A DNA stretch of 64,000 bases from Candidatus Moraniibacteriota bacterium (GTDB taxonomy: Bacteria > Patescibacteriota > Minisyncoccia > Moranbacterales > UBA1568). Of this stretch, positions 6,324-57,310 are shown piece by piece. Each line of letters opens with the position of its first letter. Positions within the stretch are counted from its first letter, which is position 1. Below the pieces are notes generated by a model, which did no database searches, was not told where the DNA came from, and saw nothing but the letters and a program-made list of their open reading frames with translations. A program made the translations under genes and the position numbers. Location of the stretch: contig CAVZUR010000002.1 of assembly GCA_963778555.1 (NCBI GenBank), positions 37,817 through 101,816 on the forward strand, given 5' to 3'.

Positions 6324-6370
6324 GTCGCTGCAGCGGACAATGCGCTATAATGAGGCAGCAAGACAAAAAA

Positions 6371-7601
6371 ATGAAAAGATTTTTTTCGTATCTCTTTTTC
6401 CTCCTCCTGACAGCCGGACTGTTCATCGGGGTCTATTGGCTCAATTGGTTCCATCCCGCCATTAATCCGGGCCAGGAAGTGACCTTCGTTGCTGAACAGC
6501 CGTCGAATGAATCTGGTATTATCATCCGCGATGCTCCCGATCCCGAGGGACGCACGCCGGACAAGAATCCGCCCATTCTGGTCGAAGCAATCGCCTCCGG
6601 TTTGGATACGCCGTGGGATTTGGTTTTCACGTCGCCTTCCCGTATTCTCATCACGGAACGGCCGGGACAGATTCGCGTCCTAGAAAACGGCACTTTGCGC
6701 GAAACGCCGCTCCATGTTTTTACAGAAGTCGTAGAGAAAGGCGAGGATGGGTTGATGTCGATCGCAGTTGGTCCTGCATATTCGGAAAATCATTTCCTCT
6801 ACGCCGCGATCGCGTATGGCGAAGCGGATCGGCTCTGGCTGAAAGTCATGCGTTTCATCGATACCGGAAATGCGCTCACTGAACCGTTTACTGTGATTGA
6901 TCGTATCCCAGCCGCTCAGTTCCATGCTGGCTGCCGGATCGCGTTCGGTCCCGACGGGAAGCTTTATGTCACGACGGGTGACGCGACGGACAAGACTCTC
7001 GCTCAGGATCCGGCATCGCTTGCCGGAAAAATTCTCCGCCTCAATAAAGATGGGACGATACCTGACTGACAATCCCTTTGTCGGAAGTGCAGTCTGGTCA
7101 CTCGGCCATCGCAATCCGCAGGGGCTGGCCTGGCAGCCGGAAGCTGGGATTCTGTTTGAAACGGAACATGGTCCTTCGCTTTTCGACGGACCAGCGGGTG
7201 GAGATGAAGTAAATAGAATCGAGAAGGGTGGGAACTATGGTTGGCCCCTGGTTTCGCATGAAAACTCGCGCGAAGGCTTCGTTTCGCCACTGGTCGTCTT
7301 TACGCCGGCCGAAGCGCCCGGCTCGCTCATGATCTATTCTGGTCGGGTCTTTCCGGAGTGGCGGGGCAATCTGTTCTTTGGCGCGCTTAAAGGCGAAGGA
7401 CTCATGCGGATTCGACTGGAGGGGACTGATGCGAAAAAGGTGGCCGCATACGGTAAACTGGGCGAGGTCAAACTCGGCCGCATCCGGGCGGTAGTGGAAG
7501 GGCCGGACGGCAATATCTATTTCACGACGTCCAACCGTGATGGGCGCGGCCAGCCCGCGCCACTTGATGACCGCATCTTCCGCATCCGAGGCAAGGATTA
7601 G
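6371..7601 (+). CDS. PQQ-dependent soluble aldose sugar dehydrogenase (YliI/SGDH family), frameshifted (fragments 6350..7069 and 6897..7601)
   Basis: Six-bladed beta-propeller SGDH motifs are split over two frames. The reading frame breaks at a tandem CTGA CTGA at 7063-7070. Removing one copy restores '...DGTIPDNPFVG...'. Confidence 0.75.
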
Positions 7602-7627
7602 GCCCAAAACGGACCTTTTTCGGACAC

Positions 7628-7657
7628 TTGACTCTTAGTACCCCCGGGGGGTATAAT
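7628..7657 (+). promoter_or_regulatory. consensus sigma70 promoter TTGACT-18-TATAAT for the SDR gene
   Basis: -35 TTGACT at 7628-7633 and -10 TATAAT at 7652-7657. The spacer contains the palindrome CCCCCGGGGGG. GGAG lies 8 nt before the ATG at 7713. Confidence 0.6.
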
Positions 7658-7712
7658 GCAGGGGTGAATTTCATGCGGTTGAACCTAACCCATTACCACC
7701 AGGAGCAGTCTT

Positions 7713-16484: not shown

Positions 16485-19293
16485 ATGCCTGGAAAAAAGA
16501 GTGTCATCGAGATACGCGGAGCCCGGGTGAACAATCTGAAGAACGTGGACATCGACATTCCGCGCGATTGTCTCGTCGTTATCACCGGACTGTCGGGATC
16601 TGGGAAATCATCACTCGCTTTCGATACGCTGTACGCCGAGGCCAACCGGCGTTATGTCGAATCACTCTCGGCCTATGCGCGGAACTTCATGGAGGGCTAC
16701 GACAAGCCGGATGTCGATACGATAAAAAATCTTTCTCCGGCCATCTCGATCGACCAAAAGAGCGTCTCACGGAGTCCACGTTCGACGGTCGGGACCATGA
16801 CGGAAGTCTACGATTTTCTCCGTCTCCTCTTTGCCAAGGTCGGGAAGCCGCACTGTCCGAAATGCGGCCAGACGCTCTCGCGCAAGACCGCCGTAACCAT
16901 CTTGAATGAAATTCTGGCGCTGCCGAACGAATCGAACCTCGTCTTTGCGGCGGAAAGCCCGCTCCTCGCCGGGAAGAATTGGCAGCAGGCCATCGATCTG
17001 GTCGATGACTGGGGCTTTGTGCGTGTTTGGTACCGCGATGCGGCGGTCTTGCTTTCTGAGCTGCGGACGATCGTCGACCTGACGGCTCCGGCCGAGTGTT
17101 TGATTATCATCGACCGGATCGCGCTCGATACTGCCCGACCGGATAAAGAGCGCATGCTCGACTCGATTCATACCGCCTTTCAGACCGGTCAGGGTGTGAT
17201 GCGACTCTTGGCGGACGGGGAGCATTTTCATAATTACCATGAGCGCTATCGCTGCGAGGTCTGCCAGGTCGAGCTCCCGGAGTTTTCACCGGCGCACTTC
17301 TCGTTCAATAATCCCGAGGGTGCCTGCCCGACCTGCAGCGGCTTGGGCGTGACGTTGGAATTCGACCCGGCGCTCGTCATCCCGAACGATATGCTGTCGA
17401 TCTCCGAAGGGGCTATCCGTCCATGGAGCAAGATGAACAGCGATCGGGGAAATGGCAACGGTCCGATGGCACTCTTGCGGGAGATGGCAAAACGCGAGAA
17501 GATCTCGCTCGATATCCCGGTCAAGAAACTCACTGAGAAGCAGCGCGAGTATATCCTCCGTGGGGATGCAAAGCGTGATCTGGCGGATGAATTCGGTTTC
17601 CCGGGTGTTCTCGGCCTTTTGGAGCGGAAGTATCGCGAGACGAAGTCCGATCACCTGCGAGCGGAGATCGAAACCTTCATGTTCATGCAGCGTTGTCCGG
17701 ATTGTCTCGGGAAGCGGCTGCGCCGAGAGTCGCTTTCGGTCTTTGTGGGCGAGCGGAATGTCAGTGATTTTGTCAATCTTTCTATTGAAGAACTTATTGG
17801 ATTCTTCAAAAAGCTCCGGGGTACGCTGCTCCAGAGCGGGGAGGAGAAATCGCTCGTTGATCCATTGTTCAACGAGATGGAGATGCGGCTCACGGCCGTC
17901 GATAAGGTCGGTCTCGGCTATCTCTCGCTGTCGCGGAGCGCGGATACCCTTTCTGGCGGCGAAGCTCAGCGGATCCGGCTTTCGGTCCAGATCAAGTCCG
18001 GCCTTTCGGGCATCATCTATGTCCTGGATGAGCCGTCGGTCGGGCTGCATAGCCGCGATACGGACCGGCTCATCCGCGCGCTCGAAGAGCTCCGCGGTGC
18101 CAATAACTCACTCGTCGTAGTCGAGCATGACGTCTCGATTATGCGCAAAGCGGATTGGATCATCGATCTCGGACCCGGTGCTGGGAAAGAAGGCGGGGAG
18201 ATGATTTTCTCCGGCACCCCGGAGAAGCTGATGAAATCAAAAATGCTGACGGGACAATACCTCTCCGGCAAGCGTTCGGTCGTGAAAAAGGAGTCCCCCC
18301 GCCAGGGATCCGGCCGAGTCCTCTCGATTGAGGGCGCAACGGAACATAACCTGAAAAATGTGACCGTGGATATCCCGCTCGGGAAATTCGTCTCGGTCTC
18401 AGGCGTTTCGGGATCTGGCAAATCGACCCTGGTGCACGATATCCTCTCACGGGCGCTGGCCAGGCATTTTTATCAGGCCCGAACGGAGCCCGGCGCACAT
18501 CAAGCAATCAAGGGCATCGAGCACATCGACAAAGTGATCACCGTCACGCAGGATCCGATCGGGCGGACGCCGCGTTCCAATGCCGCGACGTATACCGGTA
18601 TTTTCAGTCTCATCCGGGACGTCTTTGCCGCGACTCCCGAAGCGCAGAAGGAACGGTATTCTGCTTCATATTTCAGTTTCAATATGCGCGGCGGACGCTG
18701 CGAAGTCTGCCAAGGCGGTGGATTGAAGAAAATCGAGATGTATCTCCTGCCCGGATGTCTATATTTCATGTGAGGTCTGCAATGGAACGCGCTACAACGC
18801 GAAGACGCTCGCAATCCAGTATCGGGGTATGCATATCTCCGAGGTTTTACGCATGACGGTCGCTGAGGCGCGGCACTTCTTTCTTGACCAACCGATGATC
18901 GAAGAGAAGCTCCGAGTTCTCGAAGAAGTCGGTCTCGGTTATCTCGTCTTGGGCCAGAGCGCACCTAACCTCTCGGGCGGAGAGGCGCAGCGTATCAAGC
19001 TCGCGACTGAACTCGCCCGGAAATCGACAGGCAAGACCCTGTATATTCTCGATGAGCCGACAATCGGACTGCACTTCGAAGACGTCCGGCGTCTGTTGGA
19101 GGTGCTCAACGCGCTGGTGGACAAGGGGAATACGGTCCTGGTCGTCGAACACAATACCGATGTGATCAAGGCCTCCGATTGGGTCATCGATATGGGACCG
19201 GATGGCGGTGACCGCGGCGGCATGATCGTCTATGCCGGGGTACCTGAAAAATTGAAAAAAATAAAAGCGAGTTTTACCGGGAAGTATCTCTAA
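16485..19293 (+). CDS. uvrA: excinuclease ABC subunit A (UvrA), frameshifted (ORF fragments 16362..18773 and 18829..19293)
   Basis: Both ABC modules and the zinc fingers are present. The frame breaks at CCC 18750-18752. Reading one base on restores the UvrA-like '[33 protein letters not shown]...'. Confidence 0.9.
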
Positions 19294-19309: not shown

Positions 19310-20230
19310 ATGCTCAAAAAGGCTATCCTCGCGACGATTGCCTACTATGACGCCCTCGAATATCCTTTGACTGGGTTTGAGGTGTGGAAGCATCTCATCC
19401 AGCCGAGCGAGGCACTGACAGTCGGTCCAACACTCGGGGAGACGAACGCAGCGCTCGAGGGCTCATTCAGAGCGGAACGGCCTCGCTGTTCCGGGGTTTT
19501 GTCGTACTGCCGGGTCGGGAATTGCTCGTTCCGACCGCGTATCCGCTCCGAAAAACACGCGGTGAGAAAAATCAAGCGCGCCGTGCAGCTCGTTCGCTCG
19601 CTCGCTTGGGTACCTTTTGTCCGGATGATCGGACTGACAGGAAGTCTCTCGATGAAGCGCGGCGACGAGCACAGCGATTGGGACTTGTTCGTCGTGCTTC
19701 AGAAGGGGGCGATTTGGCGCGGCCGGACGGCATTATCGCTCATCCTCCAGCTGATGGGCAAGCGCCGCCACGGGCGGGCCATCGAAAATCGCGCCTGTCT
19801 CAATCATTTCGTGACGGATGGCAGCCTCGAGATCGTCCTACAGGATTTTTTTTCGGCACATGAGTATCGATTCATGTACCCGATCGTCGGGGAGGAGACG
19901 TTCCGTCGTTTCGAGTTGGCCAATCGCTGGATGGTCAAGATCAAACCGGCGTTCCGCCCGGCGGACCTGCCGGTTTTCTGGATGCGCCGATCCAGGAATT
20001 TCCAGCGATGGATCCAGCGATGGTTGGAAAGACTCTGTTCCTGGAATGGCCTGGAGGCTCGGCTGGCGCGGTGGCAGAAAATGAAAATCATGAATAATCC
20101 GAAATCGCGCGCGCCAGGCGCCTTCATCGTGGCGACGGACGACGCGCTTATCTTTCTCCCGCATCCCAAAGGACCGATGGTTTTCGAACGTTTCAAGGAA
20201 AAACTTTCGATCGCGAGTCTTTCGCTCTAG
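19310..20230 (+). CDS. nucleotidyltransferase-fold family protein (CPR-type 'MLKKAILxxAYYDxxEYPLT' family), probably carrying two compensating frameshifts
   Basis: NTase motif 'GLTGSLSMKRGDEHSDWDLFVV', plus 'ACLNHF' and 'FSAHEY' blocks. The middle segment reads as protein only in the +2 frame ('FRGFVVLPGRELLVP...RKTRGEKNQARRAARSLA'). A (CGCT)3 repeat lies at 19595-19606. Confidence 0.6.
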   Translation: MLKKAILATIAYYDALEYPLTGFEVWKHLIQPSEALTVGPTLGETNAALEGSFRAERPRCSGVLSYCRVGNCSFRPRIRSEKHAVRKIKRAVQLVRSLAWVPFVRMIGLTGSLSMKRGDEHSDWDLFVVLQKGAIWRGRTALSLILQLMGKRRHGRAIENRACLNHFVTDGSLEIVLQDFFSAHEYRFMYPIVGEETFRRFELANRWMVKIKPAFRPADLPVFWMRRSRNFQRWIQRWLERLCSWNGLEARLARWQKMKIMNNPKSRAPGAFIVATDDALIFLPHPKGPMVFERFKEKLSIASLSL

Positions 20231-20283
20231 GCACGCCTGCCACGTGCTATAATGGGGAAAAAGAAAAGCAAAAGAGAACGGCT

Positions 20284-21508
20284 ATGCCGAAGTATTTGTA
20301 TACAGCGAGAAATATCTCGACGGGCGAGACGAAAGGCGGGGAGATCATCGGCAAGGATGAAAGCCATGTCGGTCAGGATCTCCGCGGTCAAGGGTATCTC
20401 GTCACATCCCTCAAGCTCATAGAAGAAGCGACGGAAGGCGTCCAGGTAAAGTTCCTTGACCGCTTCCGGTCGGTGCCATTGAAGGAAAAGATGATGTTTA
20501 CGCGAAACCTCGCGGTTATGACATCATCGGGTTTGACGATTTCACGCGCCATCCATAATCTCGCCCTGCAGACGAAAAACAAGCGCTTTCAGAAGATCCT
20601 GAACGACGTGCATGATGATGTCCAGGCAGGCAAGCAACTCTCTGAAGGTTTGGCCAAATACCCGAGCGTATTCAACGATCTGTTCGTCAACATGGTTTCG
20701 GTCGGGGAAGTCTCGGGAAATCTGGAGGAGGTGCTCGATATCCTCGCGCTTCAGCTTGAGAAGGAGCACGAACTCCTCTCCAAGGTGCGCGGAGCGCTGA
20801 TTTATCCAGCGGTCATCGTTGTCGCCATGATCGGCATCGCGACGCTGATGCTCACCTATATCCTGCCGAAGATTACGCAGACATTCGTCGATATGGACGT
20901 GAAGCTTCCCGCCACGACGCTCTTCATCATGGGGCTTTCAAGTTTCCTTATCACTCACTGGCTCTTGTCGCGTCCTGATCGTCGTCGGATCGATGGTGGC
21001 CGTCCGCGTCGCCGCCAAGACTGAAGCGGGCCGTTATTTTCTCCATTGGCTGGTGCTGCGGCTGCCGATCGTCGGCAATATCGTCATCAAAGTGAACTGC
21101 GCGCGTTTCGCCCGCATTTACAGCTCGCTCTTGAAGAGCGGGGTCTCGGTTATCAACGCGCTGACCATCGTTTCTCGGACTCTGGGCAATGTCTATTACA
21201 AGGAAGCCCTGATCAAAGGCGTGGAAGAGATTCAGAAAGGGACAGAGCTTTCCAAGATCATCGGACAATACCCCGTGATTTTCCCGATACTCGTGACCCA
21301 GATCATCCAGGTCGGCGAAGAGACCGGAAAGACAGAGAACGTCCTTCAGCGCTTGGCGGAGTTCTATGAGGAGGAGGTTTCTCAGATCACGAAGAATATG
21401 TCATCGATCATCGAGCCGATCCTGATGCTCCTCATCGGCAGCATGGTCGGTTTCATGGCTGTGGCCATGCTCCAGCCGATGTACAGCGTCCTGGAAAATA
21501 TCCAGTAA
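20284..21508 (+). CDS. pilC: type IV pilus assembly platform protein PilC / GspF family, frameshifted (fragments 20284..21024 and 20993..21508)
   Basis: Two T2SSF domains split across frames. The frame changes near 20965-20975: '...LITHWLL' is followed in another frame by 'VLIVVGSMVAVRVAAKTEAGRY...'. Confidence 0.85.
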
Positions 21509-22900
21509 TGATTTCCCGTATGCAGAGATCTACCGAACGGCGATCACTCCAGGGATTCACCCTCGTCGAAGGGATGGTCATGCTGTTTCTCTTCGTGTTG
21601 ATTACGACCGTTTTCTTCCAGACGTTTGCCTACGGTACGGCGCTCGTCCAGCAATCGAAGTATCGTTTGGGTGCGGTAGCGCTGGCTAACCAGAAAATGG
21701 AAATCATTCGGAGCCTGGATTACGACAATATCGGCACAATCTCCGGCATTCCGGCGGGCGATATCACGGAGGATGAATCGGTGCAGGTGAATAATAATTT
21801 GTACCAGGTCCACACCTTTATCCAATACGCAGACGACGTATTCGATGGGAGGCTGGGGGACAGTCCGAACGACTTGGTGCCGAACGATTACAAGCGCGCG
21901 CGGGTTGAAGTTGCCTGGGGAGCGGAGAGCGAATCCGAGAAAGTCGCGCTCTTCTCGACTTTCGCCCCACCTGGAGTCGAGCAATCCGTCGGGTGGAGGC
22001 ATTCTCTCCATTAACATCCTTGACTCACAAGGAAACGGGGTTTCAGGCGCGACGGTTCACATTACGAATAGCGCCGTGAGCCCGACGATCGATGTGACGA
22101 CGGCCACGGACTCAACCGGTAATCTTTTCCTGGTTGGCGCGCCAGCCAGTTCGCAGCAATATCATGTGACGTTCTCCAAGAGCGGGTATTTTGGCAGCCT
22201 GACCTATGCGCCCTACCCCACGACGGCCTTCATCCCGACCGACGTCCATGCCTCAGTCGTCAATGCGACCGTCAATCCGGCGTCATTCGTCATGGATCGA
22301 TCCTCGACCCTTCACCTGAGAACCAAGGATTCATTCGGTGTGGCGATACCGGATATCGATTATCGGATCGATGGCGGCCGTCAGATTGGCACGCAGTCTG
22401 GTACAGGAGTTGCCGTCTACGATTTTGGTGAGGCTGCAACGACCGATACGAGCGGCGAGCATGATTACGCGAATCGGAGTTACGGGAGCTATATCTGGAC
22501 GCTCGACGCCGGTGAGACAGGGTACGCGTTCATCCGGCTTTCTCCCGAGTCAGGTTCGGGCGCCAATCTTATCACGCTGACGCCCGATACCACCCAGGAA
22601 GTCCAGATGATCCTCGCTGATGAAGCGGTAAACGGAGTGCTCTTCACGGTGACGAATGCTGACGATGCTACGATCGTCAACGGCGCGTCGGTGCAACTGA
22701 CCAATGCAACACTCGCCTACGATGAAACAGTGACAGCGAACATCTATGGTAAAGTCTATTTCCCCGCGAGCGCCACGCCGGGACTGGCCGCCGGAACCTA
22801 TGACTACGAGATCGTCGCCGCTGGCTATACGACTAAGACCGGCACGGTCACGGTGACCACCGGTTTGGAAGTAACCACCATTGGCCTGAATCCATCATGA
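21508..22900 (+). CDS. prepilin-type N-terminal cleavage/methylation domain protein (large pseudopilin), frameshifted at GGG 21991-21993
   Basis: Pilin leader 'LQGFTLVEGMVMLFLFVL'. ORF 21508..22014 continues as 21845..22900 once a single G is removed ('...EQSVGGGILSINILDSQGNG...'). Confidence 0.75.
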
Positions 22901-23552
22901 TGCAATATCCGTTCCCAATTCGTCGAACCAAGAAGCTGAAGGGTCTGACACTGGTTGAAATGCTAGTTGCTATTTTCATCATGTCGGCGGGGATGCTCGG
23001 CTTCTACCCTCCTCTTTTCAAGCAGCTGGAAAAGCAATAAATTCATACTCGAGACCGGGTACCACGGCAGTCCGGGTAAATCGGGCCTCAAGCGAGATTA
23101 TCAATAATCTTCGCAAAGTCCGTCAAGCCGACAATGGCGATTATCCGATCGAATCTGGCGATGATTTTGATATTCAGGTCTACCTGGATATCGATAATGA
23201 CGGGGTGACAGAGCGGGTGCATTATTGGCTCGATACGGTCAATGATTGGTTGATGCTGGGTATTCGCGAACCTTCGTCGGCGGTCCCTCCGAGTTATGCA
23301 TCTGGCGATGGTACGACCAGGATTCTCGCCGAGTACATTGTCAACGAAGCCGCTCAGCCGGTTTTCTACTACTATAATGAGAATTATCCAGGCGATACGG
23401 TGAATAACCCGATTCCGACGCCCATCGCGATCGAAAATGTTCGGCTAGTGAGAATTTTGCTCCGGATGAATATCGACCCGATTAAAGCGCCGAACAATAT
23501 CAACGTCGAATCCTTCGTGGATCTCCGTAATCTCGAATCATATGGCAATTAG
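22897..23552 (+). CDS. prepilin-type N-terminal domain protein (pseudopilin), frameshifted near 22995-23010
   Basis: A 47-aa ORF 22897..23040 carries 'KGLTLVEMLVAIFIMSAGMLGF'. The 0 frame is open from about 22980 and runs into ORF 23205..23552 ('...SSFQAAGKAINSYS...DIDNDGVTERVHYW...'). Confidence 0.65.
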
Positions 23553-25000: not shown

Positions 25001-25055
25001 TCGCGCGTGGTATGATGATGAGTGAAGAAAAAAGAAACGAAACAAACATGCCGCT

Positions 25056-26150
25056 ATGAGTTTTTTTCGGAAAAAGATTTTTGATCTCTTCCCTCAGCCC
25101 TTCGGCCTGGATCTGTCCGATCTTTCGGTCAAAGCGGTCTGGCTGGAGCGCGAGGGGAAGGAGGACATCGTCTCCAGTTTCGGATCGGTTCCGATCGCCA
25201 TCGGCAGCATCGTAGACGGGGATATCATAAAGGAGGACGTGGTCGTGCAGGCCATCAAAGACCTGCTCGAGAAGACGAAACCGCGGCCGGTCAAGACACG
25301 CAAGGTCATCTGTTCATTGCCGGAAACCAAAGCGTTTCTCCGAGTCGTCTCATTGCCCGAAATGCCGAGCGACGAAGTGAGGGAGGCGATCAAATGGGAA
25401 ATCGAGGCCAATATCCCGCTCACGCTCGACCAAGTGTACTACGATTATCAGATTCTCGATAAGAAACTCGTCAAGGAAAAAAACAAATTGAGCGTGCTAG
25501 TGGTGGCGGTGGCGCGGAGCATGGTCGACCAGATTCACGCGGTCTTGGAGAAGTCCGGACTGGAAGTGGTCGGGCTGGAGACGGAGTCGATCGCCCAGGC
25601 GCGCAGTCTGCTCATTGAGAAGGACGAGGATAAGACGCGGATGATCGTGGATATCGGCGATCGGCGGACCAGCTTTCTGGTCGCAATCGGCCATACGCCC
25701 TGTTTCACATCGAGCGTTCCGCTTTCCTCCCAGATGATTTCCGATGCTATTTCGAAGGAGATGCGCATTTCATTCGAAGAAGCCGAGGCCATGAAGATCA
25801 AGTACGGACTGGGATCGCTCGCCATGCAAAGCCCGCTCTTCAAGGCCGCCCAGCCGATTCTCGAGAATCTGGCCGTCGAGATCGAACGCTCGACGAATTT
25901 TTATCTCAGCAATCTCGGCTATTCGAACGCGATCGATAACATCGTGCTCTGCGGCGGCGGATCGAATATGAAAGGGCTCCTGCCGTATATGACGAAACGC
26001 CTGAACCAATCGGTCGAGTTCGGCAACCCCTGGGTCAATATCCAGCTCGGCCGGACACTCCCACCAATCGATCGGGGACATTCGGTCCAATACTCAACGG
26101 CCATCGGCCTCGCGCTGCGCGGCCTGGATGAATATGAGGATCTTACTTAA
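25056..26150 (+). CDS. pilM: type IV pilus assembly protein PilM (actin-like ATPase)
   Basis: 364 aa with an actin/FtsA-like fold, directly followed by the pilN and pilO homologues. Confidence 0.85.
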   Translation: MSFFRKKIFDLFPQPFGLDLSDLSVKAVWLEREGKEDIVSSFGSVPIAIGSIVDGDIIKEDVVVQAIKDLLEKTKPRPVKTRKVICSLPETKAFLRVVSLPEMPSDEVREAIKWEIEANIPLTLDQVYYDYQILDKKLVKEKNKLSVLVVAVARSMVDQIHAVLEKSGLEVVGLETESIAQARSLLIEKDEDKTRMIVDIGDRRTSFLVAIGHTPCFTSSVPLSSQMISDAISKEMRISFEEAEAMKIKYGLGSLAMQSPLFKAAQPILENLAVEIERSTNFYLSNLGYSNAIDNIVLCGGGSNMKGLLPYMTKRLNQSVEFGNPWVNIQLGRTLPPIDRGHSVQYSTAIGLALRGLDEYEDLT

Positions 26151-26692
26151 TATCTTGCCGGAAGAGAAACGGAACGGAATCGTTCGACGATTCCGCTCCC
26201 GGTTTTTCCTATGGCAGACAGTACTTATACTCCTCCTCGAGGTGTACTATGTGGCTGTTCTCGGGGGAATCTATATGATACTGAATTACCAAACTGAGGT
26301 GGGAACGGAATCACTCATTACTTTTGACCAGTACAGCGAAGAAGCGAAAAAACTCAGCGAATATCAGGAAGAATTCAAGCAAATCAATGCTCAGACGGAA
26401 AAAGTCAATCGCTATCAGCGTGCTCACTTTCATTGGAGCGCGCTCTTTGTCGCTGCTTCAGGAGCTCGCTCCCAAGGGAGTCGTCATCGTCGAGCTCCTG
26501 ACGAAGGATTATACGGTTTCGATTTCCGGCCAGGCAGGGACACGCGACCAATTTCTCGAATTCGAATCGGCCCTGAAAGGAGCGGAATGTGTCAGTGATG
26601 TCCGGGTCCCGATTTCGAACCTGTTTTCTCAAAAAGAAATTGAATTTCAAGTGGATTTCAAGCTGAAGCGGGAATGTCTGCTCCATCTATAA
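26128..26692 (+). CDS. pilN: PilN-like pilus assembly protein, frameshifted (fragments 26128..26598 and 26324..26692)
   Basis: The N-terminal TM and coiled coil lie in frame 1. The C-terminal 'SLLQELAPKGVVIVELLTKDYTVSISGQA...' lies in the +1 frame. The switch is near 26420-26460. Confidence 0.65.
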
Positions 26693-40674: not shown

Positions 40675-41651
40675 ATGAAAATTTTAGTTACGGGAGGAGC
40701 TGGTTTTATAGGCTCCAATTTCATCCGTCATATTCTGGAAACGCGGCCGGAGGCCGAGGTCGTGAATCTCGACGCCCTCACCTACGCGGGGAATCTGGAG
40801 AATCTTGCAACGCTTCGGACGGAGTCGCGGTACCGGTTCGTGAAGGGGGATATCGCGGACGCGGCGACGGTGGACCCGCTGGTCGCCGAAACCGACGCGA
40901 TCGTCCATTTTGCCGCCGAGAGCCATGTCGACCGTTCTATTCTCTCGCCTGACGCATTTGTCCGGACCAACATTCTCGGCACCTTCACGCTGCTCGAAGC
41001 GGCGCGGAAGCATACCAAGCGCTTCCATCATGTTTCGACGGATGAAGTCTTCGGATCGCTTACGGCCACTGACCCAGCGTTTCACGAAGCGACACCGTAT
41101 GACCCACGCAGTCCGTACAGCGCGACCAAAGCCGGATCCGACCATCTCGTCCGGGCGTATTTCCATACCTATGGCTTGCCGGTGACCATCTCGAATTGTT
41201 CGAACAACTATGGCCCGTATCATTTCCCCGAGAAGCTCATCCCGCTCGCAATCACGAATCTCCTTGAGGGAATGAAAGTGCCGGTGTATGGTGACGGAGC
41301 CCAAAGACGCGACTGGTTGTATGTCGAGGACCACTGCCGAGCCATCGCGCTTATCCTCGAACAGGGCAAACTCGGCGAAACGTACTGCATCGGTGGGGAT
41401 GGCGAGCGCGAAAACATCTGGATTGTGAAAAAACTCCTCGAACTCCTGGGCAAAGACGAGCGCAGATCGAATACGTGACCGACCGCCCGGGTCATGACCG
41501 CCGCTACGCGATCGACTACTCGAAAATTAAGTCCGAACTCGGCTGGCAGCCAACGGTGAGTCTGGAGGAAGGTCTGGCTAAAACTGTCGAATGGTTCAAG
41601 GCCAATGAGAGTTGGTGGAAAAATGCTTGCCAGAAACGCGACCACATATAG
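40675..41651 (+). CDS. rfbB: dTDP-glucose 4,6-dehydratase, frameshifted near 41455-41468 (fragment 40675..41478 + C-terminal part in -1 frame to 41651)
   Basis: '[12 protein letters not shown]' and 'YSATKAGSD'. The C-terminal '[29 protein letters not shown]...VEWF' is encoded out of frame. Confidence 0.85.
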
Positions 41652-41830
41652 TGCGATCGTGGGCTGGTGAAGAGCGAGGAGTATCAGAAATACTACGCTG
41701 AGCAGTATGGGCAATAGTAGTCACTATAGCAGTTTGGTGGTTGAGTATGTGGGAACTATGCCCGAATGTATTTATATAGTACAGTTGAATCTGTCCATGT
41801 TCAAAGTAAATCAATATTGTATATAGTTAT

Positions 41831-42505
41831 ATGGCAGATCGGATTCTATTCCTGATTTCAGGGGTCGTCATGATTGGAGGGGCTTATCTGTCTATGTTTT
41901 TTGGTGTTACTGGATATATGGCCTTCTTTTTATTTTGTATCCCCATTATGTCTACTGTACTCAGGCCAATTGTGTCTGCACATGGGGTGGTCAACCAAGA
42001 AAGTAAGCTTGCCTTTCCCGTGAAATTAGTCAGTTATACAATGCTATCCTATGGATTACTTACTATTCTATTATTGATTACAGACTCTATTTTTGTTGGT
42101 TCAATCCCGTTAGTATATCTGTTTCTAAGCATATGTTTGTATCCAATTGTGCATTTCACCTATGTTGTTTTGCCTAAAAGCCTGACGCGAGAGAGGGGAC
42201 TGATTGTTCCATTTTATCCAAGCGGAGTAACTTTGGTATTGGGATACATATTTGTGTACATGTATCATACAGCAGACCTGTCCCCTATCTTAATACTGCC
42301 CATAATAATCTGTTGTATTACCAGTCCTTTTCTGTACAAACGGAGCTTTGAAGTTATGCTTCGTCAGGGTGGGTCAACAGCATATACTAAAAAACAATAC
42401 CTCATACAACTCTTATTGGTTTTTGTAATAGGATTTATTGTTTTCGTATCCGGATACTTGGGTATGGGGCTTTCGAGTATAGAATACGGATTGCCTGGCC
42501 TATGA
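41831..42505 (+). CDS. hypothetical polytopic membrane protein in low-GC insert (possible polysaccharide-related, e.g. Wzy/acyltransferase-like; unassigned)
   Basis: 224 aa with about 7 TM segments. GC is roughly 38% against about 60% for the flanks. The Wzy/acyltransferase guess rests on location inside the rfb cluster only. Confidence 0.5.
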   Translation: MADRILFLISGVVMIGGAYLSMFFGVTGYMAFFLFCIPIMSTVLRPIVSAHGVVNQESKLAFPVKLVSYTMLSYGLLTILLLITDSIFVGSIPLVYLFLSICLYPIVHFTYVVLPKSLTRERGLIVPFYPSGVTLVLGYIFVYMYHTADLSPILILPIIICCITSPFLYKRSFEVMLRQGGSTAYTKKQYLIQLLLVFVIGFIVFVSGYLGMGLSSIEYGLPGL

Positions 42506-44837: not shown

Positions 44838-45632
44838 ATGAAAGGCATCATCCTCGCTGGCGGCAATGGCACCCGGCTCCTCCCGTTGACGGCCATTGCG
44901 TCGAAGCAGCTCCTCCCGGTCTATGATCGGCCGATGGTTTTCTATCCGCTGAATACGCTCGTTTCGGCCGGCATCCGCGATATTCTCATTATCGTTTCGC
45001 CAGAGCACGCGGGCAATTATCTCAATCTACTCGGGTCGCTGCTCCGGAAGCATGGAGTCAATATTTCTTTCATCGTGCAGAAAGAACCCCGAGGTTTGGC
45101 CGAAGCTTTCATTCTCGGGGAAGATTTCATCGATAATGGCCCCTGCACCATGATACTTGGCGATAATCTTTTCGAGGGCGACTTTTCCGAAGCGGTCCAG
45201 AGCTTCGAAGGCGGCGGCCGGATTTTCGCGAAAGCCGTATCTGACCCAGAACGTTTCGGCGTCGTCGAATTTGACTCAACATCCGGCCGAGTCATTTCGA
45301 TCGTCGAAAAACCGCAGGCACCCAAGAGCCACTATGCAATTCCCGGTCTGTACATTTATGATGCGGAGGTCGTATCTGTGGCGAAAAGCCTCACGCCGTC
45401 AGTCCGCGGCGAGCTGGAGATCACGGATCTGCATAATTACTATCTCGGAAAGGGCCGGCTCGATGTCCGGGTGATCGACGGAGCCTGGTTCGATGTCGGC
45501 ACGCATGACTCGCTCCTTGATGCCAGCATTCATGTCCGCGAAAAGAATTTCCGGGACCGTTTCCATCCGATGATAGAAGCGGCACTCAGCGAGTTCAATC
45601 AGGAATTCAAGCGCATCATAGCTATTAAATAG
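44838..45632 (+). CDS. rfbA: glucose-1-phosphate thymidylyltransferase
   Basis: 'MKGIILAGGNGTRLLPLT'. Confidence 0.9.
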   Translation: MKGIILAGGNGTRLLPLTAIASKQLLPVYDRPMVFYPLNTLVSAGIRDILIIVSPEHAGNYLNLLGSLLRKHGVNISFIVQKEPRGLAEAFILGEDFIDNGPCTMILGDNLFEGDFSEAVQSFEGGGRIFAKAVSDPERFGVVEFDSTSGRVISIVEKPQAPKSHYAIPGLYIYDAEVVSVAKSLTPSVRGELEITDLHNYYLGKGRLDVRVIDGAWFDVGTHDSLLDASIHVREKNFRDRFHPMIEAALSEFNQEFKRIIAIK

Positions 45633-45647: not shown

Positions 45648-46532
45648 ATGCATGATCGACAGAGACCAGTGAAGAAGGCAATTCTCCCGGTGGCGGGTTT
45701 TGGCACACGCTTCCTGCCGGCCACGAAAGCTCAGCCGAAAGAGATGCTGCCGGTCGTGGATAAGCCTGTCATCCAGTACCTGGTCGAAGAGGCGGTGGCG
45801 TCGGGCATTGAGGAGATAATCTTCGTCACGGGCCGCGGCAAGCGCGCGATCGAGGATCACTTCGACGTTTCGTACGAGCTTGAGGATACACTCGTCGAAA
45901 AGAACAAGCATGATCTCCTCGAAGCCGTACAGAAGATTTCCGGACTCGCCAAATTCTCGTATGTCCGCCAGCCGGTGCCGCTCGGCGACGGCCATGCGCT
46001 CCTGCAGGCAGCGCACCTCGTCGATGACGACGAGAGCGTACTCGTGATCTTCGGCGATTGCCTCTATGATTCCGTGGTGCCGGCTTCGCAGCAGCTCATC
46101 GAGACATATGAAAAGTACCATGATCCGATCATCGGACTGTCGGAGGTAGCGCATGAGGACGTCTCAAAATTTGGTGTGATTGATGGGGTTGAGTTGGATG
46201 AGTGGACGTATGAAGTGAAGGGGATGGTCGAGAAGCCGCAGCCGGAAGACGCTCCGTCGAATCTCGTTGCGGTCGGGAAATACATCATCACTCCCGAAGT
46301 CTTCAAAGTGCTCGCCACGATGAAGGCGGGGAAGAGTGGGGAGATCCGCCTGGCGGATGCCTTTGATACGATGCTGGTGAATGGCCGGCCGTTGTATGGC
46401 CGCAAGCTGTCGGGCGAGTGGCTCGATACGGGCGACAAGTTCAATTTCATCAAAGCGACCATTCATCTCGGATTGCAGCATCATGAAGTCGGCGACAAGC
46501 TCCGGGCCTACCTCAGGACGCTCCGGTTCTAA
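45648..46532 (+). CDS. galU: UTP--glucose-1-phosphate uridylyltransferase
   Basis: 'KAILPVAGFGTRFLPATKAQPKEMLPVVDKPVIQY'. An alternative GTG start lies at 45633. Confidence 0.85.
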   Translation: MHDRQRPVKKAILPVAGFGTRFLPATKAQPKEMLPVVDKPVIQYLVEEAVASGIEEIIFVTGRGKRAIEDHFDVSYELEDTLVEKNKHDLLEAVQKISGLAKFSYVRQPVPLGDGHALLQAAHLVDDDESVLVIFGDCLYDSVVPASQQLIETYEKYHDPIIGLSEVAHEDVSKFGVIDGVELDEWTYEVKGMVEKPQPEDAPSNLVAVGKYIITPEVFKVLATMKAGKSGEIRLADAFDTMLVNGRPLYGRKLSGEWLDTGDKFNFIKATIHLGLQHHEVGDKLRAYLRTLRF

Positions 46533-47278: not shown

Positions 47279-48432
47279 ACATTGGCATCGACGCTCGTTT
47301 CTACGGCTCGCTTGGCAAAGGGCTTGGACGATACACCGAGAAACTCCTGTCCTACCTGGAAGCAGATGCGACCGATGAGCATACGTATGTCGTGTTCTTG
47401 CGGCGCGAAAATTTCGATGAGTATCAGCCAAAACATGCGCATTTCAAAAAAATCATTGCCGACTATCCTTGGTATGGCTGGCAGGAACAGCTCCTTTTCC
47501 CTTTATTGTTGTGGCGGCACCAGCTGAACCTCGTGCACTTCCCGCACTTCAACGTGCCGTTGTTCGTGCCAGTGCCATTCATCGTCACTCTGCATGACCT
47601 CATCCTGCTCCGTTTTCCGACCGTCAAAGCGAGTGAGCTTCCGCCCTTCTTGTATTGGCTGAAGTATATTGCCTATCGGGTAGTGATAGCTATGGCGGTT
47701 CGTCGCTCCCGGGCCATTATCGCCGTCTCTGAATTCACGCGGCATGACATCGAGCGGGCCTATCCCGCTGCTCGCGGAAAGATATCAGTGACGTTGGAGG
47801 CAGCGGAACCATTTTGCTCTTGGCTTTCGCCGGCGGCTGAACACTCACTGCTCGAATCCTTAGGTTTGATACACTCTGGTGGACCCGGTTCAGCTCCCGA
47901 AAGACTCGCGTTTGTACTCTACGTGGGGAATGCCTATCCACACAAAAATCTCACACTCCTGTTGAAGGTCTCAGCGGCGTTTCCGGAACAGCTCTTTCTG
48001 TGCGTGGGGAAAGATGATTTTTTTTATCGGGCATTCCGGGAGCAAACGAGAATGGCAGGCGCCACCAATATCCGCTTCGCCGGATATGTCAGCGATGCTT
48101 CACTGGGCGTCTTGTACCGGCGCGCGCGCGCGTATCTCTTCCCTTCATTGTACGAGGGTTTCGGACTGCCGGGGCTGGAAGCGATGCTGTATGGCACGCC
48201 CGTCGTGGCGGCCGCAGCGGGCTCATTGCCGGAAATTTATGGGCCGGCGGCGACCTATTTCAATCCGACCAGTGTGTCGGAATGCATCCAAGCGCTGCGC
48301 GCAGTCTTGCAGCAATCAGTCAGCCATTCTCAGCGCGCTGCAGGATTCTCTCAGGTAGCGAAATTCTCCTGGCGGCGCATGGCGCGCGAGACTCAGCATC
48401 TTTACGAAAGTTGTCCGACAAAGCGATACTAA
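47275..48432 (+). CDS. glycosyltransferase family 4 (GT-B, retaining)
   Basis: EX7E region 'EGFGLPGLEAMLYGTPVVAAAAGSLPE'. Confidence 0.8.
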   Translation: MNIGIDARFYGSLGKGLGRYTEKLLSYLEADATDEHTYVVFLRRENFDEYQPKHAHFKKIIADYPWYGWQEQLLFPLLLWRHQLNLVHFPHFNVPLFVPVPFIVTLHDLILLRFPTVKASELPPFLYWLKYIAYRVVIAMAVRRSRAIIAVSEFTRHDIERAYPAARGKISVTLEAAEPFCSWLSPAAEHSLLESLGLIHSGGPGSAPERLAFVLYVGNAYPHKNLTLLLKVSAAFPEQLFLCVGKDDFFYRAFREQTRMAGATNIRFAGYVSDASLGVLYRRARAYLFPSLYEGFGLPGLEAMLYGTPVVAAAAGSLPEIYGPAATYFNPTSVSECIQALRAVLQQSVSHSQRAAGFSQVAKFSWRRMARETQHLYESCPTKRY

Positions 48433-48437
48433 GGGAT

Positions 48438-50528
48438 ATGCGCGACATTATCCCATCCCAGCGTCCGACCACTGGAACAGCCCGGAGAATAGCAGAGTCC
48501 CGGCCTGTGGCACGGCCGCCAGTCCGGTCCGTTCTTACCGAGCGCCCCGTCTTCCAACCGCGGCCGAAGCGAAGAGGTCTCCGCGCTCTCTGGTGGGTGT
48601 TGGGAGTAGTTCTCCTCCTGGCGGTCTGGAGCGGTATAGAGCTGAAGCAGTCATTGCAGCATTCCGGAGAACAAGCGATTGTGCAGTTGGAGGAAGCGGT
48701 GACGGCTCTTCGCGCCAGCGATTTCGATCGGGGGCGGCAGTCTCTGCGCTTGGCTGAAAGCAGTTTCTCAGCGGGCGCGCGTCGTTTGTCTCTCTTCCGC
48801 TGGCTGCCAGATTCCTTTTCACGCATTCCGGGCTGCGCGCAGGTCATGGCCGCTGAAGCCCTCTTTCAGTCGGGGGTAGCCGGGACACAGGCGGCGCAGG
48901 CGCTCGTCTCAATTGTGGGCGGCGTGCTTTCGACGGAAACAGCATCCCACAGTGCGGACTCCATGATCACATCACTCGATCGTTCCCAGGACGCCGCCAA
49001 CGAAGCGCACGCGGCACTCGCCCGCGTCGCCCGGGCGTTTGAACGCATCAATCCGACGGCCGTACCGAGCCGGTATCGTGATCGGCTTGCGACGGTGCGG
49101 CAGGCGCTGCCAATCGCCAACGCGCTCTTGTCCGGCTATGTCGAGCATCAAGCGCTTTTTTCCGAGCTCCTGGGGGCGAACGGTCCGCGCGTATATCTTT
49201 TCCTCTTCCAGAACAATCATGAGCTCCGTGCGACGGGTGGCTTCATTGGGAGTTACGCGCTTTTAGACGTGAATGGAGGCCGAATCCGCCGTTTCTTTGT
49301 CGATGGGATATTCAATCCCGACGGCCAGCTGAAAGAGAACATCGTTCCCCCGAAACCGATCCAAAAGATCAGCGCCGGCTGGAGTCTACATGACAGCAAC
49401 TGGTTCCCGAATTTTCCGACGTCTGCTGAGAAAGCGATCTTCTTCTATGAGAAGACGGGCGGTCCAACGGTAGACGGCATCATTACGCTCACGCCCGCCG
49501 TTCTTCAACGGGTGCTCGCGCTGGTCGGCCCGGTGACGCTCCCGGAGTATGGCGTGACAATTGATGCGGAGAATTTCATCCCAATCATTCAGGATGAAGT
49601 CGAGGTGAAATACGATAAAGAGGAGAATGAGCCCAAACGGATCTTAGGCGATCTGATGGAAGTGCTACTCTTACGCTTTCTGTCTTTCAATCGTCCGGAA
49701 GAGACCTGGCGGCTGGGGAACACGTTTGCGGAACTTCTCAATGAGCGGCATATTCTCTTGTATTCGCGCCATCCGGATATCGAACGGCTGATCCGGAGCG
49801 CCGGTTGGTCCGGCGAGGTGCTCGCCACGCCGCACGATTATCTCTCCGTGATCCATACGAATATCAACGGCTACAAGACGGACGGCGTGATCAAAGAGAC
49901 GATCGAACATATGGCGGATATCCGTGCCGATGGCCGTGTCGTCGATACCGTCACCATCACACGCCAGCACACGGGAGGCCATACGCCCTATACCTGGTGG
50001 AACCAGGTAAACGCTGATTATGCCCGGGTTTATGTTCCTCAAGGGTCGAAGCTGATATCGGCCGAGGGCATGACACGGGAATTTCCGGAAGCGCCGCTGG
50101 ATTATCTTGCGCTTGGTTTTCGGCGCGATCCGGATATCGTCAAAGAGGAAGAAGGAACCGTCATCGACGCCGCCACGGGCACTCGGATCTCTGAAGACGC
50201 GGGCAAGACAGTGTTTGGGAATTGGGTCTACGTGAGTCCGGGTGAATCAGTGAGTGTTCGCTATGTGTACGAGTTGCCCTTCCGGGTTACGCTGGACGAT
50301 GCGGACGAGTCACCGGCGACATCGTACTCGGCGCTCTACCAGAAACAGGCGGGAACGGAAGGCGTGACGCTCAAGGCGTCCATCCAGTATCCGGATAGCC
50401 TCCGTTTAGTTTGGCAGACCCCTGAAAATTTGGTACCGTACCAGCGGGTCTTTCGGACTGAAAGACCGCTCAATAAGGACTTTTATTGGGGTGCCGTGTT
50501 CGGAAGCAGGAATGTGTCTGGAGAATGA
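48438..50528 (+). CDS. DUF4012 domain-containing membrane-anchored protein
   Basis: N-terminal TM, then 'NNHELRATGGFIGSYALLDVNGGRI...DGIITLTPAVLQRVLALVGPV', as in DUF4012. The ATG at 48438 follows the GT4 stop. Confidence 0.65.
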   Translation: MRDIIPSQRPTTGTARRIAESRPVARPPVRSVLTERPVFQPRPKRRGLRALWWVLGVVLLLAVWSGIELKQSLQHSGEQAIVQLEEAVTALRASDFDRGRQSLRLAESSFSAGARRLSLFRWLPDSFSRIPGCAQVMAAEALFQSGVAGTQAAQALVSIVGGVLSTETASHSADSMITSLDRSQDAANEAHAALARVARAFERINPTAVPSRYRDRLATVRQALPIANALLSGYVEHQALFSELLGANGPRVYLFLFQNNHELRATGGFIGSYALLDVNGGRIRRFFVDGIFNPDGQLKENIVPPKPIQKISAGWSLHDSNWFPNFPTSAEKAIFFYEKTGGPTVDGIITLTPAVLQRVLALVGPVTLPEYGVTIDAENFIPIIQDEVEVKYDKEENEPKRILGDLMEVLLLRFLSFNRPEETWRLGNTFAELLNERHILLYSRHPDIERLIRSAGWSGEVLATPHDYLSVIHTNINGYKTDGVIKETIEHMADIRADGRVVDTVTITRQHTGGHTPYTWWNQVNADYARVYVPQGSKLISAEGMTREFPEAPLDYLALGFRRDPDIVKEEEGTVIDAATGTRISEDAGKTVFGNWVYVSPGESVSVRYVYELPFRVTLDDADESPATSYSALYQKQAGTEGVTLKASIQYPDSLRLVWQTPENLVPYQRVFRTERPLNKDFYWGAVFGSRNVSGE

Positions 50529-54812: not shown

Positions 54813-54846
54813 GCCGGTTGGGTAAATAGCGGCAGCAAACATACAT

Positions 54847-55287
54847 ATGAAAATTCACAAGGAACGTATCGACTTGAAGAGTACGTCGCAGATACAGTTC
54901 ATCGACATCACGACGCAGGTGCAGGAGATCGTGAGTCGGTCAGGTATCCGCGAAGGGCAGGCGCTCATCTATGTGCCGCATACGACGATGGGCGTTGCTA
55001 TCAATCACAATGAAGCAATGCTGCTGCAGGATTTCATGCGCATCCTCTATAAAATGGTCCCGGTCGACGATCAATACTCGCACGATTTGTTTGAGTTACG
55101 GCGCGAGACGAAATCTGACGGCCGGTCTAACGGCCATTCACACTGCAAGGCCATATTGCTCGGGAACAGCGAGACCGTTCCGATTGAGAAGGGATTGCTC
55201 CTCCTGACAGAGCGACAAAATATTTTCGCCGTGGAATTCGACGGTGCTCGCGATCGAGACGTCGTCATCCAGGTGATCGGCTACTAA
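54847..55287 (+). CDS. YjbQ/UPF0047 family secondary thiamine-phosphate synthase-like protein
   Basis: 'ALIYVPHTTMGVAINHNE' and 'HSHCKAILLGNSETVPI' blocks, matching YjbQ. Confidence 0.7.
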   Translation: MKIHKERIDLKSTSQIQFIDITTQVQEIVSRSGIREGQALIYVPHTTMGVAINHNEAMLLQDFMRILYKMVPVDDQYSHDLFELRRETKSDGRSNGHSHCKAILLGNSETVPIEKGLLLLTERQNIFAVEFDGARDRDVVIQVIGY

Positions 55288-56334
55288 TTGCGTCTCCTCA
55301 TGCGTTTTGTCATTGGGATTTTCAAAACAGTCACGGTCGTGAGCGTAAGCCTCATTTTGGTGGGTTCGCTGGTTTTGTGGTATCTGCTCAGCCGGGTGGA
55401 TTCGGCGCGTGGTTCGGCGGTTGAAAACCAGCGTTTTATGGTCGGTCAGGGTGAAGGTGTCGTGTCGATTGCGGGACGGCTCGATGCAGCCGGTATCATC
55501 GACGGGCGACTTACCTTTGTTGTCTATGCTGCGAAAACAGGTCTGTATAAGAAATTTCAAGTTGGCGAGTACGGTCTTTCCGGTCGACTGGCGATACCCG
55601 AAATCGTCAATCGCTTCGTCGATGGGAAAGTGGTGCCGGCCGGTGTGCGAGTGACCTTTCCAGAGGGCTGGACCTTGCGCGAGATGGCTGAACGGCTCAC
55701 CGCTAATGGACTCGCGGGAGCTGAATTCCTGGCCATTGCTGAAAAACCATTTCCGAAGTGGCGCGAACGGTTTAATATTCTGAAGGATCTGCCAGAGGGC
55801 GCGAGCCTTGAGGGCTACCTTTTTCCTGACACCTATATTTTCCCGAAACAGGCGACTGGCGAACTCATCGTGAATGAGCTACTTGAAAATTTCAAGCAAA
55901 AAGCGGTTCCGATCATCACATCAGGACGGGAGGGATCGGCGCTGACCCTTCATGAGACGTTGACGCTCGCATCGATTATCGAAGAAGAGGGCCGGACCGA
56001 GGCCGACCGGAAGAACATCAGTGATGTATTCCGGAAACGCCTCGCAGTCGGTCAAGCGCTTCAGAGTGATGCAACCATCAATTATATCCATGGTACGGCG
56101 AAGGATCAGCCGACCTTTAAAGACCTCGAATCTTCTTCGCCGTACAACACCTATGCCCGACCGGGGTTACCGCCCGGACCGATTGGCAATCCGAGTCTCA
56201 TGTCGATCGAGGCAGCTTTGCATCCGACCAACAACGCCTATTTTTATTTTCTCATTGATCCCGAAACGCGGATCACGTACTTTGCCGAAGACTTCGAAGG
56301 GCATCAGCGGAATCGGGCCGCGCATGGTCTTTGA
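55288..56334 (+). CDS. mltG: endolytic murein transglycosylase MltG (YceG family)
   Basis: N-terminal TM and YceG blocks 'LQSDATINY' and 'NTYARPGLPPGPIGNP'. Confidence 0.85.
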   Translation: MRLLMRFVIGIFKTVTVVSVSLILVGSLVLWYLLSRVDSARGSAVENQRFMVGQGEGVVSIAGRLDAAGIIDGRLTFVVYAAKTGLYKKFQVGEYGLSGRLAIPEIVNRFVDGKVVPAGVRVTFPEGWTLREMAERLTANGLAGAEFLAIAEKPFPKWRERFNILKDLPEGASLEGYLFPDTYIFPKQATGELIVNELLENFKQKAVPIITSGREGSALTLHETLTLASIIEEEGRTEADRKNISDVFRKRLAVGQALQSDATINYIHGTAKDQPTFKDLESSSPYNTYARPGLPPGPIGNPSLMSIEAALHPTNNAYFYFLIDPETRITYFAEDFEGHQRNRAAHGL

Positions 56335-56340
56335 TCGAAT

Positions 56341-57310
56341 ATGTCCTCACACCGCCAAACGATCGCTCTCATCCTCCTCTTCGGTATCGCGGCACCGGCG
56401 TATTTCGGTTATTCAGCCGTGATGCAGGCGGTGCTGGTTGAAGAAGCGAGCGTGTTCATTGTTCCGCTCCTCTGGTTCGTCCTTACTCTGACCGTTTTTT
56501 CAACGGGTGCAGTCTTGTGGCAGGGGATAGCGGAACGGAGCATGGCGAGCGGACTTCTCATCCTGCCGAGCATGTTTTTTGCCCCTTCGCTCATGCATGG
56601 AGCCGTCATCTTGGTCGCAGCTCTCATCGTGTTCGGCGGACTGCTTCGTATCAGCCGCGAGCTTGCTTCGAGACTCCGTTTTTCAGTGTACCGCAGTGTC
56701 TTTGTAGGGCTGGCACAGATTATCTTTGCGCTCTCGCTGGTGATATCGAGCCAGTACTACGTTCATGTCGACACGCTTTCCTGGGACCGACTGGTGCCGA
56801 GTTTCGATTTGGGTGAAGGCACTGGCGCCTGGCTCTTGCGAACTATTGGTACGGTCTCGCCTTCGCTGGTGTCGCTTCAGGACCGCGAACTCTCGGTGGA
56901 CGGATTTCTCCGTGAAGTTCGGCCCGTTCAATCTAGCGACGAGTCACTCGGTCTCGAGAAGAGCGTCGTGGAAGCAGTGCGTCAAGCGGAAACCATGCGT
57001 TCAAAGACTGAGCTTTCACGGCTTCTGGGGCGCGAGGTGGGCGGGGATGAAAAAATGAATGAAATCCTCTCTGAGGTGCTGAGAAAAAAAGTGATTGCGT
57101 TCGTTTCTGGTGGAACGCCAACGGCCTCAGGAAATGTACCGTTCCTACCTTTCTTCCTTGCCATTCTCCTCTTTTTTTACCGTCTATCCGCTCGGCTCCA
57201 TCCTGGTACCCATCGTGCTGTCTTGCTCGACGGTCATATTGGCTGTTGGTATCCGCAGTGGGCTTATTGTTTTGAAGAAGATTCCGGCCGAGCGCGAGGT
57301 CATCGTGTAA
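56341..57310 (+). CDS. hypothetical polytopic membrane protein, frameshifted in a T7 homopolymer (57170-57176)
   Basis: ORF 56341..57339 turns Arg/Cys/Trp-rich after the T7 run. The +1 frame (ORF 57095..57310) continues TM-like: 'VYPLGSILVPIVLSCSTVILAVGIRSGLIVLKKIPAEREVIV*'. Confidence 0.55.

Follow-up and report, generated by a model that had tools for sequence, protein, structure and literature searches.

Ten of the approximately 63 genes in a 64,000-nucleotide stretch of DNA (hereafter the window), part of a deposited metagenomic contig (140,917 bp) from an uncultured Candidatus Moraniibacteriota bacterium, are divided between two or more reading frames by 12 single-nucleotide events. The affected genes include uvrA, glucose/sorbosone dehydrogenase (GSDH), rfbB and most of a type IV pilus operon. 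The frameshifts very probably arose as consensus errors of the deposited sequence, the organism itself being free of them, a reading to which a probability of about 0.88 is given. The evidence that carries it is the presence of intact genes in a second assembly (Logan) at each of the six events that this assembly covers, together with orthologues that are unshifted in five related genomes at every site. An earlier note on this DNA had preferred assembly or sequencing indel error and had proposed comparison with a closely related genome as a check, and the preference is borne out. Because gene products of the window itself are present in a protein collection, for example a 762-aa (amino acid) N-terminal fragment of UvrA (P0001) and a 560-aa call for a DUF4012 protein (P0123), both sourced from NCBI+ENA and from one 140,917-bp contig, the frameshifts belong to the public record and were not added afterwards.

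Identification of the split reading frames

The comparison set consisted of the syntenic loci of five related genomes, with L001, L086 and L087 corresponding to approximately 6–29 kb of the window and L082 and L085 to approximately 38–59 kb. The UvrA proteins of L001, L086 and L087 are 87–89% identical to that of the window, and all of the genes in question are intact and syntenic in every one of the five relatives. Pfam profiles assign the halves of GSDH, UvrA, PilC (two T2SSF domains) and RfbB to different frames. Searches by tblastn with the proteins of the five relatives return colinear matches that switch frame in the window, and the conservation downstream of each shift equals the conservation upstream. 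Frameshift-aware protein-to-DNA alignment with the relatives, in which an event was counted when at least two of them supported it, gives 12 single-nucleotide events, 10 of them an extra base and two a missing base (Table 1). The split frames are therefore present at nearly the positions first proposed, but in 10 genes and not in the 11 or more that the earlier note had counted.

Repair of one base per site returns all 10 genes to the length of their orthologues, and nine of the 10 repaired genes have no in-frame stop. The only internal stop is left in rfbB, where it derives from a separate 42-nt insertion described below. No nonsense codons were found in the approximately 11 kb of 'broken' genes. 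About 35 further genes aligned to the same relatives by the same method contain neither a frameshift nor an in-frame stop, and in regions without close relatives the Pfam domains are full-length and further breaks were not seen. Possible missed frameshifts were examined at 348–1025/895–3498/3383–4177, 36001–36354/36236–38128, 47275–48432/48282–50528 and the RarA C-terminus (32199), all of which look like ordinary gene overlaps or normal ends.

Table 1. Affected genes, single-nucleotide events and assembly comparisons, in window coordinates.
Feature	Position	Strand	Event or remark
GSDH	6350..7601	+	one extra base at 7063/7064 (CC[T/G]AC)
uvrA	16485..19293	+	one extra base within GCCCGG, 18749-18754
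Conserved 306-aa gene	19310..20230	+	compensated pair: missing base ~19458-19461, extra base ~19531-19537
pilC (T2SSF x2)	20284..21508	+	extra C at 20971
463-aa pilin-like protein with CarboxypepD_reg domain	21508..22900	+	extra G at 21991 (GG to GGG)
217-aa minor-pilin-like gene	22897..23552	+	two extra bases: A at 23006, G at 23057
PilX/GspK-like gene, ~485 aa	23542..25000	+	extra C at 23644
pilN	26128..26692	+	one extra base within 26445-26455 (CTCTTTGTCGC)
rfbB (dTDP-glucose 4,6-dehydratase)	40675..41717	+	one missing base, 41460-41462
322-aa membrane protein	56341..57310	+	C-terminus shifted by one extra T in T7 run (57171-57178)
Extra-base events	7064, 18750, ~19531-37, 20971, 21985-91, 23005/6, 23057, 23644, 26446-55, 57172	+	frameshift-aware alignment
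Missing-base events	~19458-61, 41462	+	frameshift-aware alignment
42-nt in-frame insertion in rfbB	41623..41664	+	13 protein letters, with TAG stop, between WWKN and VKSEEY
L091 gap	20971		extra C in window; predicted frameshift site (L091 TGTCG-GTCC)
L091 gap	21991		extra G in window; predicted frameshift site
L091 gap	23006		extra A in window; predicted frameshift site
L091 gap	23057		extra G in window; predicted frameshift site
L091 gap	23566		extra A in window; not a predicted frameshift site
L091 gap	23644		extra C in window; predicted frameshift site (L091 GAATAT-GTCTC)
Logan contig L089	41570-43707		window region without predicted frameshift
Logan contig L090	49554-52303		window region without predicted frameshift
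Logan contig L092	26591-27926		window region without predicted frameshift
Logan contig L093	38166-40814		window region without predicted frameshift

Pfam profile positions 1–160 and 157–329 of GSDH lie in two frames, and two relatives put the extra base at 7064. For uvrA, alignments with three relatives (each intact, 935 aa) change frame at 18750, and the repaired open reading frame (ORF) likewise encodes 935 aa with no stops. The repaired pilN ORF encodes 187 aa, against 185–187 aa in the relatives. In rfbB, Pfam positions 1–269 and 272–332 fall in different frames and the site reads GACGAG-CGCAG in the window as opposed to GACGAGTCATCG in the relatives. From 57173 onward, frame +2 of the window matches the C-terminal 45 aa that this membrane protein has in the relatives, and the repaired protein of 322 aa compares with 324 and 343 aa.

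Two genes depart from a simple single break. The conserved 306-aa gene, termed 'NTase-fold' in the earlier note, has no Pfam and no NCBIfam match. A missing base followed by an extra base was called in it with all three relatives, leaving approximately 25 codons out of frame while the ORF remains open. In the alternative frame the sequence is GLIQSGTASLFRGFVVLPGRELLVP, a match to GFVILPGRE in the relatives (tblastn E values 1e-4 to 1e-6), and the stretch GFVVLPGRELLV of that frame is likewise matched by GFVILPGRE. Both sites proposed for this gene were recovered, although the second lies near 19534 and not at 19600, and the gene stays open as the shifts compensate. The second exception is the 217-aa minor-pilin-like gene, in which three frames are used inside 130 nt; it has a weak N-terminal PilV/ComGF-like match that falls under the curated cut-off. 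One site each had been predicted for this gene (about 23000) and for the prepilin-like gene preceding it (about 21991). Both sites were recovered, with the second gene holding two insertions and not one.

Comparison with a second assembly

The Logan contigs of run ERR11593397 are an independent k-mer assembly of the same population and share 99.6–99.9% identity with the window across 14.4 kb. An exact-sequence look-up demonstrates that MurJ, RfbD, RfbC and the 247-aa protein after pilN are shared with Logan assemblies, and the 90% clusters of two of the broken genes hold intact Logan versions, P0290 (GSDH, 416 aa) and P0294 (the 463-aa pilin-like protein). On removal of base 7063 the GSDH of the window is identical to P0290 at 416 of 416 residues. 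The earlier note had allowed for 4-bp indels and for slippage in tandem repeats at sites such as the doubled CTGA. All of the events are of 1 nt, and P0290 reads IPTDNP at the CTGA site, which fits the removal of one base, so that neither a 4-bp indel nor tandem-repeat slippage is needed.

The contig L091 (5,519 bp), which encodes P0294, aligns to 19686–25210 of the window at 99.6% identity with 16 single-nucleotide polymorphisms (SNPs) and six one-base gaps, the window being the longer sequence at six of six. All but one of these gaps lie at predicted frameshift sites. Its pilC is intact (407 aa), and so are three pilin-like genes, with products of 463, 217 and 471 aa. The predicted events are consequently absent from Logan at all six that are covered, five through L091 and GSDH through P0290. 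The four contigs L089, L090, L092 and L093, together 8.9 kb and 99.86–99.93% identical to the window, show eight SNPs and no indels.

The remaining events, at 18750, 19458, 19534, ~26447, 41462 and 57172, lie outside the Logan coverage. L091 begins at 19686, past the pair in the 306-aa gene, L092 is 144 nt short of the pilN site, and L093 is 648 nt short of the rfbB site, which lies in a Logan gap (40815–41569). When a chimeric protein query was used for the uncovered sites, the best 120 matches were filled by UvrA and RmlB relatives. The six events concerned (uvrA, the compensated pair, pilN, rfbB and the membrane protein) are probably errors of the same kind, judging from those that Logan does cover.

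The window and the Logan contigs differ by 24 SNPs in the total of 14.4 kb, and these SNPs reveal no fewer than two closely related strains. From 21.4 to 25.2 kb, five indels but only three SNPs distinguish the window from L091. Thirteen of the 16 SNPs of L091 are gathered within 0.8 kb of pilC (20599–21412, ~1.6%) and are mostly C/T, with a frequency of ~0.1% elsewhere. This patch, next to the 20971 indel, represents local strain microdiversity or recombination.

The one L091 gap that lies away from a predicted site falls in a run at 23561–23566 (L091 ~3875), where the window has A6 and Logan A5. Here the relatives back the window: A6 gives the prepilin-like leader MAISSAIRKKG/SALVY, whereas with A5 the start codon is lost. 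The A5 is either a homopolymer undercall in Logan or a real variant, and an undercall at this position would suggest that the reads are indel-noisy.

Spectrum and clustering of the events

The events are not spread evenly. Seven of the 10 that were listed first fall within 7.7 kb (simulated P ~0.001), and of the final 12, nine belong to the interval 18.7–26.5 kb, where uvrA and the type IV pilus operon are located. Nor do they follow the homopolymers. The window contains 73 runs of at least 6 nt, 28 of which are of at least 7 nt, and the T7 run at 57172 is the only one affected; an A9, an A8, seven T8 and two G7 runs are all in frame. At least three of the insertions are non-duplicative, being a C in G_G, an A in T_C and a C in T_G. 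The suggestion that several sites are homopolymers or tandem repeats therefore holds for the short runs (CCC, GGG twice, TTT and T7) and fails for the remaining sites, which are not repeats. Homopolymer-prone chemistry, which had been offered as one example of such error, is contradicted both by the run census and by the non-duplicative insertions, and homopolymer-driven error of the 454, Ion Torrent or Nanopore R9 kind was rejected on the same count of one run in 73. The lesion spectrum is technical and not mutational in character, because 10 of the 12 events are +1, all are 1 nt, at least three are non-duplicative and nonsense codons are absent.

Origin of the frameshifts

Indel-noisy long reads, drawn from a population that included closely related strains, were probably the material from which the contig was assembled. 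In the stretch from uvrA to pilN, which would be more microdiverse, the consensus step may have kept single extra bases and twice lost a base, and gene callers would then have cut the affected genes into fragments. That the underlying reads are long reads is suggested by the length of the deposited contig: at 141 kb, against 1.3–5.5 kb for Logan contigs of the same organism, it fits a long-read data set. The clustering of the events would best be explained by strain mixing, with the uvrA–pilus stretch being more microdiverse, or else by weaker consensus support there. It was also considered whether both alleles of a strain SNP had been written side by side. Four of the five exactly placed insertions can be read as a synonymous alternative of the neighbouring base, and the fifth (A at 23006) would yield the Thr seen in all relatives. 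However, random insertions are compatible with this mechanism 45% of the time (P = 0.13, not significant), and the pattern is a hint only.

The proovframe preprint (10.1101/2021.08.23.457338) reportedly deals with frameshifted gene calls that arise from residual indels and with tools for their repair. The present case resembles residual indels of long-read assemblies (Nanopore or PacBio continuous long reads) in that single-base indels cut otherwise intact conserved genes, at a density here of ~1 per 5 kb, and are gone in another assembly of the same population. It is unlike the classic nanopore signature of deletions in long homopolymers, as insertions predominate here (10 of the 12 events) and only a single event falls within a run of at least 4 nt. 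It also differs from the usual long-read residual indels in that the events are packed into one 7.7-kb stretch with raised strain microdiversity. Frameshifted gene calls resulting from long-read consensus indels are well documented and repair tools have been described (PMC9262707).

Several points weigh against consensus error as the explanation. The second assembly checks six of the 12 events, so that those at 18750, the 19458/19534 pair, pilN, 41462 and 57172 are extrapolated. Although assembled independently, Logan may derive from the same reads, and hence does not amount to independent data. It differs from the window by 0.07–0.4% SNPs and may follow a different co-occurring strain; because it may track another strain, Logan taken alone is also compatible with a window strain that truly carries the indels. 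Furthermore, the profile is odd for nanopore, being insertion-biased with 72 of 73 long homopolymers correct. Finally, rfbB contains a real 42-nt insertion with a stop, and it is possible that at least this gene is truly damaged.

Alternative explanations

The explanation that competes best is that the frameshifts are real and very recent pseudogenes in one strain, which would have lost uvrA, GSDH, rfbB and most of the type IV pilus operon while the sister strain represented by Logan remained intact. This is unlikely, although parts of the evidence agree with it. The 24 SNPs that separate the window from the Logan contigs include 13 within 0.8 kb of pilC, beside the indel at 20971, and the events cluster in one operon (P ~0.001). 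The obviously essential LepA, MurJ, PBP2, a Mur ligase, DnaJ, RecJ and GlyA are all intact. In rfbB there is, independently of the frameshift, a real lesion, since both assemblies contain the 42-nt insertion with its TAG. The situation also recalls the build-up of pseudogenes in decaying genomes, such as those of recently host-restricted bacteria, in which many genes in a small region are interrupted, including those for DNA repair and surface structures, and the orthologues of relatives are intact.

The details of the lesions fit pseudogenes poorly. Neutral divergence produces far more substitutions than indels, yet over 21.4–25.2 kb the indels outnumber the SNPs by five to three. Bacterial mutation is deletion-biased, yet 10 of the 12 events are +1, and every one of the six indel differences from Logan makes the window the longer sequence. 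All are of 1 nt and several are non-duplicative, unlike the products of slippage. Nonsense codons, larger deletions and an excess of amino-acid change are absent, and the GSDH of the window is 416/416 identical to the intact allele. Nor is there any selective logic in a single small gene gaining two insertions of like direction at a distance of 51 nt (23006 and 23057). The lesions are not reproduced in the Logan sequence at six events, the rfbB insertion alone being reproducible. The comparison with decaying genomes fails on the same grounds, since here there is no mix of lesion types, nonsense codons, deletion bias or excess substitution, and a 99.6%-identical assembly lacks the lesions at the events it covers, the rfbB insertion alone being found in both. 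A particular form of this account, in which the contig is a real strain living beside an intact sister and has just had uvrA, GSDH, rfbB and its type IV pilus operon inactivated by an unusual insertion-only mutational process, is quite improbable. In a weaker version rfbB alone would be truly decaying, its 42-nt insertion with a stop being real in both assemblies. The mass pseudogenisation and slipped-strand switching raised as alternatives in the earlier note are disfavoured at the six events covered by Logan and less firmly so at the six that are not.

Recoding or switching, whether by programmed +1 ribosomal frameshifting, quadruplet decoding or slipped-strand phase variation, is extremely improbable. 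Most of the events are +1, as in frameshifting of the prfB type, and there are proline contexts (CCC-G / CC-N-G) at 7063 and 18750 and the T7 run at 57172. However, the orthologues of L001, L086, L087, L082 and L085 are unshifted at all sites and no site is conserved. A comparison of the sites for a common motif found none shared, and in particular no shared upstream stimulatory motif of the prfB type. Zero-frame stops occur 7–17 codons past the shift points and not at the shift, and stop-codon-triggered and slippery-site recoding were both rejected for these reasons. Suppressor or quadruplet tRNAs and RNA elements were discarded in turn, as the window lacks tRNA genes, unusual ones included, and has no Rfam match. 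For phase variation a long simple-sequence tract is expected at the indel. The T7 run alone qualifies, the other sites being unique or runs of 2–3 nt, and the other 72 runs of at least 6 nt are in frame. In addition, the same population gives unshifted sequence.

That the Logan contigs are instead at fault, having dropped bases from a correct window sequence, is hardly credible: the A5 at 23566 suggests that Logan does contain indel errors, but in GSDH, and at the five sites where an L091 gap coincides with a broken ORF, its version gives full-length proteins colinear with all relatives, and six random deletions would not each restore the frame exactly where the homology switches frame.

The rfbB insertion and the rfb cluster

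The 42-nt insertion near the end of rfbB is of a different nature from the 12 events. It is not found in L082 or L085, nor in P0296, a JGI protein of the same 90%-identity cluster (WWKN/VKSGEY), and it is unchanged in the Logan contig L089. Because it is identical in both assemblies, it is real sequence and stands outside the artefact. RfbB may lose 17 residues through the insertion, beyond which the 17 conserved C-terminal codons continue in frame. The possibility that it forms a hairpin, repeat or bypass element was examined and rejected, as its predicted fold is no better than that of shuffled sequences (z = -0.99) and a second copy is absent.

Between rfbB and rfbD (41715–42505) lie an AT-rich spacer and a 224-aa ORF (41831–42505); the ORF is also present in L089 and has no Pfam and no NCBIfam match. 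At the corresponding position there is no gene in L082 and there are Peptidase_S51 and Lactamase_B genes in L085. The rfbB–rfbD interval is thus a variable insertion spot of the rfb cluster. Further along, tandem NTP_transferase (RfbA-like) paralogues (44838–45632 and 45648–46532) are ~27% identical to one another, and the pair is kept in L082 and L085.

Other features of the window

Every one of the ~63 genes is on the + strand, and the cumulative GC skew climbs over nearly all of the 64 kb, the window (1–64000) forming a very long co-directional block. The GC content is 51–59% per 2-kb interval. The top named matches of UvrA and of the DUF4012 protein are metagenome-assembled genomes of Candidatus Moranbacteria/Moraniibacteriota, within the candidate phyla radiation (CPR)/Patescibacteria. 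The DUF4012 gene (48282–50528) was deposited as the 560-aa P0123, compared with ~630–700 aa in relatives and the 748 aa that the open frame permits. Its N-terminal ~75 residues are poorly conserved, which leaves the start codon uncertain, and a frameshift was not detected in it.

Non-coding gaps occur at 32200–32750 (~550 nt) and at 34140–34585 (~445 nt), the latter upstream of mraZ. Neither gap contains an ORF with a family match or an Rfam match. A terminator-like hairpin follows the RarA stop at 32199.

Significance

Were the indels real, the window would document sudden gene inactivation in a streamlined symbiont, a case of moderate interest, and a real strain of this kind would show a CPR episymbiont just as it abruptly loses functions; the evidence points the opposite way. 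The main value of the finding is instead in quality control. Residual long-read consensus errors need not be in homopolymers and can cluster where strains differ, and because of this, homopolymer-aware checks would overlook them. Approximately 16% of the genes in the window are mis-annotated as fragments or pseudogenes. Among them are uvrA and the greater part of the type IV pilus machinery; the pilus machinery is central to ideas on host attachment and DNA uptake in the CPR, and to infer from the deposited record that pili or nucleotide excision repair have been lost in this lineage would be misleading.

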